Virus record (IMG/VR): IMGVR_UViG_2547132488_000021
Coordinates: 1 to 4,227 of that record
Reading direction: 5' to 3' (one strand)
Length of the DNA stretch: 4,227 bases
From: a virus
Lineage: Duplodnaviria > Heunggongvirae > Uroviricota > Caudoviricetes
Below, in pieces: positions 1 through 4,227 of this stretch. The position numbers were made by a program, and so were the translations under genes. The notes beneath the pieces are model-generated. The model searched no databases. It was not told where the DNA came from and worked only from the letters and a program-made list of their open reading frames with translations. Every line of letters begins with the position of its first letter. Position 1 is the first letter of the stretch.

Positions 1-416
1 TTAGCCCCTGTGCTTTTCAAACATCCAAACAGAAATACTCCAAATTGTTTTTCAGAAGAAAATGCAGAGAGACATGTAAAAGCAATAGACTCATCAAAAA
101 TTTCTATGTATTCAGCACAGTGATTAGCCCAACTAATTAATCCTTTAATTAAACTGAAGTCAGCAAAGTTTATTTTTAAATAAGATGGATATTCCCTACA
201 ATCAGAAATATCCCTTAAGTTATTAGCTTTCAAATAGCGACTAATAAACTCAGCGCCAAAATCCGCCACTATCACTCTTTCAGGATATGTCAGGAAAAAA
301 TCTCTAGAGCTAGAGTCGACAAGTACAGATGAACCTCTCTCCAGAAACACACTCTCTTTTCCGAAATAAACATCAAAGGACTCCAAAATCAATATAACTG
401 AACATGTAGTTGCCAT
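1..416 (-). CDS. Hypothetical protein, N-terminal part only (gene continues beyond the left window edge); function unknown
   Basis: My own translation of the minus strand: ATG at 416..414, then an uninterrupted frame of about 138 codons down to position 3 with no stop (MATTCSVILILESFDVYFGKESVFLERGSSVLVDSSSRDFFLTYPERVIVADFGAEF...). The frame is open back to a stop at 468..470. An open frame this long in very AT-rich DNA is unlikely by chance. A GGGCGGA purine-rich stretch lies a few nt upstream of the ATG on the minus strand. Absent from the supplied ORF track, presumably because its stop is outside the window. No family recognised. Confidence 0.45.
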   Translation of the reverse strand, partial: MATTCSVILILESFDVYFGKESVFLERGSSVLVDSSSRDFFLTYPERVIVADFGAEFISRYLKANNLRDISDCREYPSYLKINFADFSLIKGLISWANHCAEYIEIFDESIAFTCLSAFSSEKQFGVFLFGCLKSTGA

Positions 417-997
417 ATCATCCGCCCAATTTAACTGAAACCAGGATGAAGTATATGTATATAAAGTTCACTTTGCCAAACTTCAATATAAAAAACCACT
501 AAAAATAGGGTGTGATAAAAAATACCGTAACAATAAAGCAAAGGATTATAAATTCCGTTACAGTTACAAATGATACTCAAGAAACAATTCCTTAGGAAAA
601 ACTTATTTACAGCCAATAAGTAAGACACTTATATGATATCAAGTTTTCATAAAACATAACTAGGCTAAATAGCTGCGCCTAATACCGCTACACTTTTGCC
701 AGCCCATGTTTGCCTCCGGGTATTGACCCCTTCTCTACGCAACTTCAGTTCCCACCACCAACTTTGCGGCAGCTTTGTAGGATCAATGTCTAAAAGAATA
801 ATGGTGACCGATAAGAAAACGACTGAATAACTGCAGATTTTCGCTCGAAACCTTCCTGTCAGATCCATAGCGAATCAAGTGCTGAATGTCACAGTATCGA
901 ACAGAAAACAGTGACGATCTAACCCTTCAAGAATATTCTACGATTGTTCTGTTTAGGAAAAGCAAGGCGGGAAGTCGGGAGATAAGTCATTGATAAA

Positions 998-1026
998 GTG
1001 GCGGAGAGAGGGGGATTTGCCCCCCC
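998..1026 (-). other. tRNA 3'-end-like motif: T-arm-like hairpin, 7 nt, G, CCA; possible decayed attachment-site relic
   Basis: Minus strand reads GGGGG-GGCAAAT-CCCCC-TCTCTCC-G-CCA: a 5-bp G/C stem with a 7-nt loop matching the T-loop consensus at 5 of 7 positions (GG in place of TT), then exactly 7 nt, a discriminator position and CCA at canonical tRNA spacing. No matching 5' acceptor strand or D/anticodon arms upstream, so it is at most an orphan 3' fragment. Confidence 0.3.
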
Positions 1027-1044
1027 GGTAGAGTTGCCCCTACT

Positions 1045-1061
1045 CCGGTTTTCGAGACCGG
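1045..1061. other. Second GC-rich hairpin (CCGGT-TTTCGAG-ACCGG) in the AT-rich spacer
   Basis: Perfect 5-bp stem with a 7-nt loop, 18 bp from the first hairpin. No U-run on either strand, so not a classical intrinsic terminator. Confidence 0.3.
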
Positions 1062-1144
1062 TCCAATCATCAAACGAAACATAAAATTAATTCACATTAT
1101 GAGGAAAAGTATCTTTTTTGTACTATGTAAATTCAAAGACTTAG

Positions 1145-2014
<870 letters not shown>

Positions 2015-2074
2015 GTCTTTAAGTGATAAGCATAAACCGCAGCACGATCTTCTTGCATACGACGTGCTACGGTT

Positions 2075-2629
2075 TCATTTATCTCCGACCGGAAACTTCT
2101 TATACAGTGTCGATATACCAACATCATAGATGATCGCCACCTTTTGGCGAGGAACGCCTGATGCAATTAATCGCCCGGCCTGCGCCCATTGTTCTGGTGT
2201 AAGTTTGGGACGACATCCACCAATTCGTCCCTGTGCGCGAGCTGCTTCCAGTCCAGCTTTTGTTCGTTCAACAATCAGTTCACGCTCCATTTCAGCCAGG
2301 GCACCCATCACATGAAAGAAAAAGCGCCCCATTGGGGTACTGGTATCAATTGAATCCGTCAGACTACGAAAGTTGATGCCTCGTTCGCGCAACTCCTCCA
2401 CCAGCACGACAAGATGCCGCATACTGCGCCCCAGTCGGTCCAGTTTCCAGACCACCAGCGTGTCACCTGCCGATAATGTCCTGAGCAGCTTTTTCAGTCC
2501 TGGTCTGTCGGACTTTGTACCGCTTATCTTGTCTTCAAAAATCAGCTCACATCCTGCACACTCCAGCGCATTACGCTGTAATTCCGTATTCTGGTTATTT
2601 GTTGATACGCGGACATAGCCAATAAGCAT
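2075..2629 (-). CDS. pin: Serine-recombinase DNA invertase, Gin/Pin/Hin/Cin family
   Basis: Translation MLIGYVRVSTNNQNTELQRNALECAGCELIFEDKISG...GDTLVVWKLDRLGRSMRHL...INFRSLTDSIDTSTPMGRFFFHVMGALAEMERELIVERTKAGLEAARAQGRIGG...VAIIYDVGISTLYKKFP has the catalytic serine in the VRVST motif, the resolvase/invertase catalytic core, and a C-terminal helix-turn-helix. Start placed at ATG 2629..2627 (protein begins MLIGY as in known invertases) with AGGGGGA 6 nt upstream; the track's longer ORF from ATG 2665 adds 12 unconserved residues. The symbol is by family analogy, not a verified ortholog. Confidence 0.93.
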   Translation of the reverse strand: MLIGYVRVSTNNQNTELQRNALECAGCELIFEDKISGTKSDRPGLKKLLRTLSAGDTLVVWKLDRLGRSMRHLVVLVEELRERGINFRSLTDSIDTSTPMGRFFFHVMGALAEMERELIVERTKAGLEAARAQGRIGGCRPKLTPEQWAQAGRLIASGVPRQKVAIIYDVGISTLYKKFPVGDK

Positions 2630-2709
2630 GTTAAATCCCCCTGGTAAAAGCAGGAATGATGCCATTTGCTTGTTATTTCTTCATTTTCATAAACGTTGGT
2701 TTGGGAGAA
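2630..2709 (-). promoter_or_regulatory. Invertase leader: ribosome-binding site and probable promoter, overlapping the crossover site
   Basis: Minus-strand sequence upstream of the invertase ATG reads ...TATGAAAATGAAGAAATAACAAGCAAATGGCATCATTCCTGCTTTTACCAGGGGGATTTAAC-ATG. The SD is clear; the -35/-10 hexamers cannot be assigned confidently by eye. Only 54 bp separate the start codon from the crossover site, so promoter elements must overlap or lie within the site. Confidence 0.4.
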
Positions 2710-3063
2710 GCAGCAAAACGGAATGTAGGTAACGGGCAAAACCAAATTCCGGATATGGCGGCGTTTGCCAGTTCACTTTCATCAACGGGTTTTCAAAAAC
2801 TCCCTTCAGGTCTGATTATTCAGTGGGGTATTGTCAGTGGAGCATCAAACTATACGGTGACTTACCCGGTAACATTCCCAAATCGTTCACTTGCGCTGTT
2901 GGCTGTGCCACATACAACGTCGGTGGCTGGTATATCTGCAATGGGAATAGCGAACTGTTCTGATATCAGCAAATCACAGTTCTATATAATTGTTGGCGGT
3001 ATATCTCAGGGAGAAATTGTCAAATATGAAAGGTCCTGTTTTTGGGTAGCAATCGGTGTATAG
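2656..3063 (+). CDS. Tail-fibre variable C-terminal cassette, silent orientation
   Basis: Track ORF ending ...SCFWVAIGV. It shares LIIQWG and the terminal AIGV with the opposite cassette. The functional cassette begins at 2710, just inside the crossover site; the ATG at 2656 lies outside the segment in the invertase leader and is probably fortuitous. No tail-fibre N-terminal constant region is attached in this orientation. Confidence 0.65.
   Translation: MMPFACYFFIFINVGLGEAAKRNVGNGQNQIPDMAAFASSLSSTGFQKLPSGLIIQWGIVSGASNYTVTYPVTFPNRSLALLAVPHTTSVAGISAMGIANCSDISKSQFYIIVGGISQGEIVKYERSCFWVAIGV
2684..2709. repeat. Left recombination crossover site (gix/hix/cix/pix-like, 26 bp) bounding the invertible segment
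   Basis: TTTTCATAAACG-TT-GGTTTGGGAGAA: two imperfect 12-bp half-sites around a 2-bp core, with the AAAC/GGTTT inner pattern of invertase crossover sites as I recall them (for example gix TTCCTGTAAACCGAGGTTTTGGATAA). Its reverse complement starts TTCTCCCAAACCAA, which is exactly the last 14 bp of the window. Confidence 0.7.
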
Positions 3064-3071
3064 GTATATCT

Positions 3072-3467
3072 ATGATTTATTTCTCAAAATCGACTAATGG
3101 TTTTTTCTTTGATGGTATAAACAGCGACATGCCTGCTGACATTGTTGAGATAAGTACAGACTTATACAATGAATTAATTGCCGGACAGCAGGAAGGGGGT
3201 AAATTAATCACGTCAGATGAAAATGGTTTACCGGTACTGAAATCTCCGGCGATTGATTATGTCGCACGTGCTGAAAATCAGCGAATGCAGTTACTTGCTC
3301 ATGCCGATAATGTCACAGCTGACTGGCGGGTGGAGTTAATGCTTGGTGATATCAGCAGTACAGATAAAGAAAAACTATCTGCCTGGATGGACTACAAAAA
3401 AGAAGTAAAAGCCGTCGACACTTCGACGGCTCCTGAGATTAGCTGGCCTGAGTTACCGGAGGTGTAG
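3072..3467 (+). CDS. Tail-fibre assembly protein (Tfa chaperone) paired with the silent cassette
   Basis: MIYFSKSTNGFFFDG...AWMDYKKEVKAVDTSTAPEISWPELPEV: conserved Tfa C-terminal signature (VDTS-AP-I-WP--P). ATG at 3072 has AGGT 6 nt upstream; the track ORF starts at a TTG (3042) overlapping the cassette's end. It starts 9 nt after the cassette stop, consistent with co-expression. Confidence 0.85.
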   Translation: MIYFSKSTNGFFFDGINSDMPADIVEISTDLYNELIAGQQEGGKLITSDENGLPVLKSPAIDYVARAENQRMQLLAHADNVTADWRVELMLGDISSTDKEKLSAWMDYKKEVKAVDTSTAPEISWPELPEV

Positions 3468-3876
3468 GCCATTCAATATCTGGAGCACTGGAGGTATCCA
3501 CCAGTTCCAGTGCGTCCAGGTAATCCAGCCACAAATTATATTGCGCCAGTTCCTCACCTTTCAGACGACCAATAGCCGCTTTACCGGGCCATTGTTTATT
3601 GTTCATGTATTCGTTGGCCTGGTTAAGCAATAATTGCCTTTCTGATTCTGCCTGTTGAATAAGTTCTTCATGTGATGGTGGAGGTATCAGTGCCCATGTG
3701 GGTAATCCATTCTCTCCTGCAACACGAATTTTGCCATCTGGGGGCGTATTTATTGCAAATTCATTATAAACATCATCACTGACAGCCAGAGCATCATCTG
3801 GCCATGAATTTGCATTAATGTAATCATCCTTAAGTGCAGGATTCACAAAAATGTTTAAAGATGGACTATAAAACAT
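3439..3876 (-). CDS. Tail-fibre assembly protein (Tfa chaperone) paired with the cassette in the expressed orientation
   Basis: MFYSPSLNIF...EELIQQAESERQLLLNQANEYM...YNLWLDYLDALELVDTSSAPDIEWPTPPVTQAS: Tfa-family C-terminal signature. ATG at 3876..3874 with a GGGGTG SD-like motif upstream, 1 nt after the stop of the upstream cassette (3878-3880). Confidence 0.88.
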   Translation of the reverse strand: MFYSPSLNIFVNPALKDDYINANSWPDDALAVSDDVYNEFAINTPPDGKIRVAGENGLPTWALIPPPSHEELIQQAESERQLLLNQANEYMNNKQWPGKAAIGRLKGEELAQYNLWLDYLDALELVDTSSAPDIEWPTPPVTQAS

Positions 3877-3877
3877 A

Positions 3878-4227
3878 TTACACCCCTATAGCGATATAAC
3901 GACCTAATACAGCGTTTGCAGCAGTCGCTATGCTTGAAAAACCGCGGAACTGATTTGATGTAATTGCAGAAGCCGACAGGATTCCTGCGCCTGAAGGTGT
4001 ATGCCCCACATGACTAACTATCATTCCATAACATGCTGACGGAAAGGCAAAAGGAAAATCATTAAGATATCCGGCATCTTCACCACCAGACCCACCAAAT
4101 CTCGCCTGCCCCCACTGAATAATCAGTGTTCTCCGGGAACCTGAAATAATTAACGGAATCGTTACATACCCATTCAGACCAATGACACCCGATGCAGTGC
4201 CAGCCAGAGATAATTCTCCCAAACCAA
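3878..4227 (-). CDS. Tail-fibre protein, C-terminal portion (partial; gene continues beyond the right window edge)
   Basis: Minus-strand frame open from the window edge to the stop at 3878..3880; translation ...LGELSLAGTASGVIGLNGYVTIPLIISGSRRTLIIQWGQARFGG...AVLGRYIAIGV. The frame reads through the right crossover half-site as L-G-E, the same residues and phase encoded by the left site on the plus strand (2701-2709). The track's initial M is really a TTG inside the crossover site, not a start. Confidence 0.8.
   Translation of the reverse strand, partial: GLGELSLAGTASGVIGLNGYVTIPLIISGSRRTLIIQWGQARFGGSGGEDAGYLNDFPFAFPSACYGMIVSHVGHTPSGAGILSASAITSNQFRGFSSIATAANAVLGRYIAIGV

Follow-up and report, generated by a model that had tools for sequence, protein, structure and literature searches.

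What is encoded by an AT-rich reading frame that runs off the end of a phage sequence, and does it belong together with the gene that it faces? The question is raised by a 4,227-nucleotide stretch of DNA from a virus of the class Caudoviricetes (IMG/VR record IMGVR_UViG_2547132488_000021, positions 1 to 4,227; the whole stretch is called the window below), whose left edge cuts through a frame lying divergently, across an 824-bp spacer, to a GIY-YIG gene (positions 1241 to 2014, plus strand). A preliminary description made from the letters alone took the two for a possible cargo island of horizontally acquired genes. The data presented here identify the minus-strand frame at positions 1 to 416, very probably, as the 5′ part (codons 1 to 138) of patE, a prophage accessory gene (moron) whose product is a 247-amino-acid (aa) AraC/XylS transcription factor from the YdeO/GadW/AppY branch. 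This regulator gene and its GIY-YIG neighbor lie side by side at the accessory end of one prophage and have different origins.

On translation of the minus strand, an ATG at positions 416 to 414 opens 138 sense codons that continue free of stops to the left edge. The closest in-frame stop upstream lies at positions 468 to 470, and because no other ATG, GTG, or TTG occurs between this stop and the body of the open reading frame (ORF), the start is unambiguous. With a stop probability of 0.073 per codon under the base composition of the coding strand, 138 open codons are expected with P = 2.8e-5; among 2,000 mononucleotide shuffles of positions 1 to 700, that length was reached in 5, and the observed stop-free run of 155 codons in none. 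G+C content is 34.6% in positions 1 to 416 and 35.2% in the full gene, compared to 44 to 50% in the neighboring genes, and third codon positions have 26.8%. The frame is therefore as statistically striking as had been noted, with its clean ATG and low G+C, and its divergence from the plus-strand GIY-YIG gene and its horizontal acquisition were likewise borne out. Its absence from the program-made ORF list reflects the fact that the list omits ORFs running off the source end.

The continuation of the frame to the left was sought in complete genomes. Over positions 1 to 1200 the window shows 100% identity to Escherichia coli UPEC-245U and 99.8% to many chromosomes of O157:H7, in all of which the frame has an AraC family annotation. 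In UPEC-245U, which is identical to the window over positions 1 to 2709, the ORF extends to a full 247 aa, confirming an intact protein-coding gene; the product, WP_000246059.1, is annotated as an AraC family transcriptional regulator. This RefSeq annotation was present in all 30 records sampled out of the 660 that carry the gene, and an exact-sequence look-up returned a cluster of 1,788 members under the name of AraC family regulator, so that the gene can no longer be called unannotated. The protein agrees with ECs_0287 of strain Sakai, a product of prophage Sp1 at thrW, at 100% of the 246 compared residues (a 246-aa query without Met1 was used here and in the homologue and PDB searches, which left the results unaffected). 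WP_000246059.1 is also found in FRIK944 and in the thrW prophage of EDL933, there beside the GIY-YIG gene and pinE. Besides the WP_000246059.1/ECs_0287 gene, the thrW prophage of EDL933 and Sakai has no gene of the AraC family, and the product is almost certainly the published regulator PatE; the equation of locus tag ECs0287 with PatE is a strong inference.

The literature fits this identification. According to published work, PatE of enterohemorrhagic E. coli (EHEC) EDL933 is expressed in stationary phase in an RpoS-dependent manner. It activates gadB, gadC, gadE, and hdeAB via a cis element that spans −132 to −45 in the hdeA promoter and lowers the expression of six genes of the locus of enterocyte effacement (both effects from a review citing Bender et al. 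2012); it is also reported to raise the acid resistance of EHEC, with mutant phenotypes on record. A paper on AppY likewise links PatE to gadE/hdeAB activation, and a transcriptome paper reports induction of ECs0287 at entry into stationary phase. The RpoS dependence and the stationary-phase expression both agree with the gene being patE. The gene is, in short, already known, through its annotation in RefSeq and its characterization as PatE, and as a finding it has small discovery value, PatE being an already characterized prophage-encoded activator of acid resistance in E. coli O157:H7.

The family assignment was examined for the full-length protein and for the window part separately. In the former, the Pfam models HTH_18 (58.4 bits, cut-off 33.6) and HTH_AraC (60.7 bits, cut-off 26.6) match aa 158 to 235, to the left of the window, revealing the C-terminal double helix-turn-helix domain of about 100 aa by which AraC/XylS proteins are recognized; Pfam gave no match in the window's 138 aa. 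The best NCBIfam model was that for YdeO (NF007407), with 148.1 bits over aa 1 to 235 and an E value of 3.5e-8 for the window part alone, which is also matched by PHROG 1450 (E = 5.8e-37). Among K-12 proteins, full-length BLASTP identity is 34.7% to YdeO, 33.5% to GadW, and 28.4% to AppY, and the N-terminal 138 aa by themselves retrieve the same three proteins (E = 3e-10, 7.5e-9, and 2e-4, respectively). The homology to YdeO, GadW, and AppY thus reaches through the N-terminal domain, beyond the helix-turn-helix region, which places the protein in this subgroup, and a common motif, M..(V/T)CSV(I/V), opens all four. The earlier statement that the protein start matches no known family is consequently true of Pfam alone, which has no model for it. 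With just 18 matches among 1.84 billion representative proteins (E ≤ 1e-3), the N-terminal domain is rare and fast-evolving, and it is because of this rarity and the lack of a Pfam model that a reader working from sequence recognized no family.

Structural comparisons point the same way for the C-terminal half. A PDB sequence search matched the GadX DNA-binding-domain structure 3mkl (E = 3e-24), and in the AlphaFold model of a 98%-identical family member (predicted local distance difference test [pLDDT] score 78) a beta-rich N-terminal domain with helices is followed by a seven-helix AraC domain. In Foldseek, this C-terminal domain aligns to the GadX DNA-binding domain with a template-modeling score of 0.9, and the model as a whole matches Rns, CsvR, and ToxT, with both of its domains included in the alignment (E = 1e-9 to 1e-6). 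The N-terminal domain modeled alone reached a pLDDT of 64 and gave weak structural scores. Residues 1 to 138, the part encoded in the window, are plausibly a cupin-like regulatory or dimerization domain, which by analogy with related AraC proteins would serve dimerization or signal sensing, while the double helix-turn-helix beyond the left edge would bind DNA.

Some observations weigh against the assignment of the window frame. With its 148.1 bits the protein misses the YdeO equivalog cut-off of 348 bits and is a relative and not an orthologue. The DNA-binding domain that defines an AraC protein lies wholly outside the window. Its left continuation, finally, is taken from a genome that is identical to the window over positions 1 to 2709 and, with a Pin-invertible segment flipped, 99.9% identical over positions 2691 to 4227.

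Of 5,426 complete E. coli genomes, 654 carry the gene over 80% or more of its length, and 659 of the 660 matching records are at least 99% identical to it. Conservation of the frame among homologues, on which the preliminary description had made the reality of the gene depend, was checked and favors a real gene: in homologues of 50 to 84% identity the whole N-terminal domain aligns with the frame undisrupted, and against an 84%-identical homologue the ratio of nonsynonymous to synonymous substitution rates (dN/dS) is 0.15 for codons 1 to 138 and 0.17 for the remainder (dS 0.54 in codons 1 to 138, about 0.5 overall). These substitution ratios show patE, on a codon-level measure, to be under purifying selection. 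Phages PhiR70_1, mEp332, and ev099 carry copies 98 to 99% identical to it, with tfa on one side and int on the other; patE thereby occupies a nonessential slot of functional phages and has an atypical composition, as morons do, and its location in the accessory region of a prophage is borne out. PADLOC returned no defense-system match for the regulator. Less similar homologues of PatE, with 84% and 55% identity (loci L017:6001-6735 and L018:6001-6735), were found directly between the genes for antiterminator Q and holin in lambdoid prophages. The Q-holin slot is the site of the Shiga-toxin genes in Stx phages. Members of the PatE family therefore occupy at least two distinct moron slots.

The origin of the arrangement can be read from the spacer, which is a mosaic. 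A region of 29% G+C at positions 417 to 665, upstream of the regulator, travels with it in every context examined; it is contiguous with it in ev099 and mEp332, and in a DLP12-like prophage positions 417 to 620 are contiguous with the regulator before an IS1 element interrupts at window position 620. There follows, at positions 666 to 720, a 55-bp fragment of an IS630-family insertion sequence (IS), 92.7% identical to a region on an E. coli plasmid that overlaps the end of an annotated IS630-family transposase gene. The match is short and the assignment of moderate confidence; the fragment marks a breakpoint between the regulator segment and copied chromosomal DNA. Positions 721 to 998 (278 bp) copy, at 97% identity, the chromosomal stretch between yodB and the tRNA-Ser gene serU, which flanks serU on its downstream side; in the K-12-type context the match lies between yodB and tRNA-Ser, with mtfA beyond the latter. 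Positions 999 to 1064 on the minus strand align with the 3′ 66 nucleotides of serU itself. The spacer matches the serU locus in 5,405 of the 5,426 E. coli genomes because positions 721 to 1064 copy the yodB-serU region and the 3′ part of serU. From position 1065 to 1240, upstream of the GIY-YIG gene, the sequence is a phage arm of e14-like myovirus type, contiguous with that gene in loci L008, L009, and L010 and missing from ev099, from mEp332, and from the K-12-type serU locus.

When the window was aligned with chromosomal serU, strain Q5, YZ22PE165, H2, ev099, and mEp332, the sole stretch common to all contexts was a 21-bp core at positions 1043 to 1063, corresponding to the anticodon stem-loop (CTCCGGTTTTCGAGACCGGT plus 1 nucleotide). 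To the left of this core the window tracks the chromosome and ev099/mEp332, and to the right it tracks e14-like myovirus prophages, so that positions 1043 to 1063 are probably the attachment or crossover core at which two phage modules were joined. The serU copy has CC at positions 1023 and 1024, in the T-loop region, where chromosomal serU, Q5, ev099, and mEp332 have AA; with this substitution it is slightly diverged, and it is not a functional tRNA. ARAGORN found no tRNA, and weak Rfam matches to "Plastid-psbl-rps4" and tRNA-Sec at positions 1002 to 1080 were rejected as echoes of the tRNA-Ser fragment.

The two modules were each traced in other genomes. The left one, of 1.87 kb, extends from 805 bp to the left of the window's first base to position 1060 and comprises, in order, a truncated IS3, patE, the IS630 fragment, the 278-bp yodB-serU flank, and the 3′ fragment of serU. 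In ev099 and mEp332, both lambdoid phages, it is found in one piece at 98.4 to 98.9% identity, with the tail-fibre-assembly gene on one side and int/xis on the other and unaccompanied by the GIY-YIG gene. A further setting is the end of a DLP12-like prophage, beside the bio operon and ybhB. The right module, from position 1043 onward, consists of the GIY-YIG gene, pinE, and tail-fibre genes and is found in regulator-free form beside restriction-modification genes and also at native serU: in strain Q5 it stands at native serU, adjoining zinT, with a junction identical over positions 721 to 2077. Across the 5,426 E. coli genomes, the regulator is present in 654 and the GIY-YIG gene in 823, and both are adjacent as in the window in 414. 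The check proposed earlier, whether homologues co-occur with the GIY-YIG gene, therefore gave independent distributions. What stands of the cargo-island proposal is that both are horizontally acquired phage accessory genes; what does not is their unity, as they belong to separate modules (to 1060 and from 1043), each widely found alone.

Could the two genes nevertheless be one functional, coinherited unit, with the regulator, for instance, controlling the defense nuclease from the shared spacer? Their divergent adjacency, its recurrence in 414 genomes, and the enclosure of both within the thrW attachment (att) boundaries of the present prophage (in UPEC-245U, from thrW with the integrase to a 56-bp repeat of thrW on the left side of the IS3 fragment) would speak for it. 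Yet the 824 bp that such control would have to use are pieced together from an IS630 fragment, chromosomal DNA copied from the flank of serU, and a tRNA attachment core; the regulator module stops at 1060 in ev099 and mEp332, phages free of the GIY-YIG gene, just as the GIY-YIG module starts at 1043 in genomes free of the regulator, including the prophage at native serU; the 414 adjacent pairs compare with 654 regulator and 823 GIY-YIG genomes; and the published PatE targets are host acid-resistance genes. We consider a single unit very improbable, being largely refuted by the independent distributions, and prefer two neighbors of different origins.

Still less probable, to the point of being hardly credible, is that the frame is a decaying pseudogene or a nonfunctional remnant of a degraded prophage. 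The setting in O157:H7 would suit decay, as the site there is a cryptic, IS-scarred remnant (Sp1/CP-933H, 10.6 kb) with truncated IS3 and IS630 sequences on the flanks. The gene itself shows no such signs, with 247 intact codons at 99% identity or more in 654 genomes, a dN/dS of 0.15, carriage by plaque-forming lambdoid phages, and, in the literature, RpoS-dependent stationary-phase transcription and mutant phenotypes. A functional regulator being accepted, the Foldseek alignments with Rns, CsvR, and ToxT might suggest a small-molecule-gated virulence regulator of that type, with fatty acids in an N-terminal pocket, instead of a GadW/YdeO-like protein. This appears distinctly unlikely: in sequence the protein is clearly closest to YdeO, GadW, and AppY, with which it also shares the N-terminal motif, whereas the structural scores of the N-terminal domain are weak and its model is of low confidence. 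Moreover, the PDB sequence search offered the DNA-binding domain of GadX and no full-length YdeO, GadW, or AppY, so that Rns and ToxT may lead by default.

On the preferred reading, that of an intact patE in a module of its own, the patE module has its place in the nonessential stretch that separates tail-fibre genes from att/int in lambdoid phages. In the window it is joined, at the serU anticodon-loop core, to the end of an e14-like myovirus prophage carrying PD-T4-3 and the pinE invertase. The junction at 1043 to 1063 would have arisen when sequences derived from serU recombined, either site-specifically or by homology, and an exchange within the core or flank that they share is its simplest account. 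A more specific version, in which an e14-like phage integrated into the serU core of a resident ev099-like prophage, predicts ev099 DNA at the far prophage end and is unsupported as stated, because in UPEC-245U that end holds the integrase of the phage itself, beside thrW, and the 56-bp thrW repeat lies left of IS3. The juxtaposition is a small, tidy example of prophage ends gathering unrelated accessory genes by recombination at a tRNA-Ser attachment core.

Both ev099 (L012:3355-3695) and mEp332 (L011) carry a piece of E. coli chromosome of about 340 bp, comprising the yodB-serU intergenic region and the 3′ part of tRNA-Ser, as in window positions 721 to 1064. This piece looks like the fossil junction of an earlier serU integration, perhaps picked up by imprecise excision. 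It is tempting to see in the patE module a portable secondary attachment or recombination site at which serU-specific e14-like phages recombine with lambdoid prophages at unrelated loci, e.g., thrW, though we regard this as speculative and on balance unlikely; if true, such a site would give rise to hybrid prophages like Sp1/CP-933H and shuffle a host-regulating moron beside a defense gene. The fossil serU junction in the patE module, apparently the seam between two phage modules, is the only mildly new point at this locus. In two other loci (L008:1-4594 and L010:420-4795) a type II restriction-modification pair abuts the serU core beside the GIY-YIG gene, with an integrase nearby in L008, which suggests that defense islands accrete in tandem at the serU attachment core.

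Upstream of the patE start codon (positions 414 to 416, minus strand; the in-frame stop at 468 to 470 leaves no other possible start), a purine-rich GGGCGGA at positions 421 to 427 on the same strand, 5 to 11 nucleotides from the ATG, is a weak Shine-Dalgarno candidate. A sigma-70-like match to the consensus at 10 of 12 positions, TTGGCA-18 nucleotides-TATACT, runs from 479 to 450 on the minus strand, about 34 nucleotides upstream of the ATG, and may be the patE promoter; the promoter scan of the region yielded 2 such matches against 4.2 expected from shuffles, i.e., no excess over chance.

On the other side of the spacer, the plus-strand gene at 1241 to 2014 encodes a 257-aa GIY-YIG protein (Pfam LEM-3_GIY-YIG, E = 2.1e-14; PHROG 5356; also annotated in RefSeq). 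Its full-length match to PADLOC PD-T4-3 (E = 4.5e-140) identifies it, at the level of sequence, as this known single-gene anti-phage defense gene. It is the last gene of an e14-like prophage, and in e14 of K-12 the corresponding last-gene slot is held by mcrA. Between the convergent ends of the GIY-YIG gene (2014) and pinE (2075) lies a G+C-rich hairpin at 2038 to 2072, probably a bidirectional terminator; an Rfam match to CssrB at 2038 to 2097, which covers this hairpin, was far below threshold and was rejected as spurious. Farther right, positions 2691 to 4227, containing the C-terminal part of the tail fibre and assembly genes, are inverted relative to the UPEC-245U assembly at 99.9% identity. 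The 19-bp overlap at 2691 to 2709, just past the start of pinE, looks like a Pin crossover site, that of an invertible host-range segment of the Gin/Cin/Pin type.

Compared with known systems, the regulator of the window is at the protein level in no way different from PatE of EDL933 and Sakai, with which it shares an identical sequence and also the neighboring GIY-YIG gene, pinE, tail-fibre genes, and IS3 fragment. The DNA of the window is closest to UPEC-245U (100% over positions 1 to 2709), where the prophage is complete at about 37 kb, in contrast to the 10.6-kb remnant that is its O157 counterpart. With YdeO, GadW, and AppY of K-12 it has in common a length of 242 to 253 aa, the two-domain layout, 28 to 35% identity over the full length, and, according to the literature, a regulon type that also includes gadE/hdeAB; it differs from them in N-terminal domain identity, which is just 23 to 26%, and in genomic location and mobile context. 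AppY comes nearest in the latter respect, being encoded near the end of the lambdoid prophage DLP12, after the tail-fibre-assembly genes. Rns, CsvR, and ToxT are the best solved full-length structural matches to the PatE model in Foldseek, and their genes, like patE, are AT-rich, horizontally acquired virulence-regulator genes. PD-T4-3, for its part, is matched over its full length by the GIY-YIG gene and, in this locus, is sited at a prophage end; the likeness belongs to the neighboring gene and is no part of the regulator.
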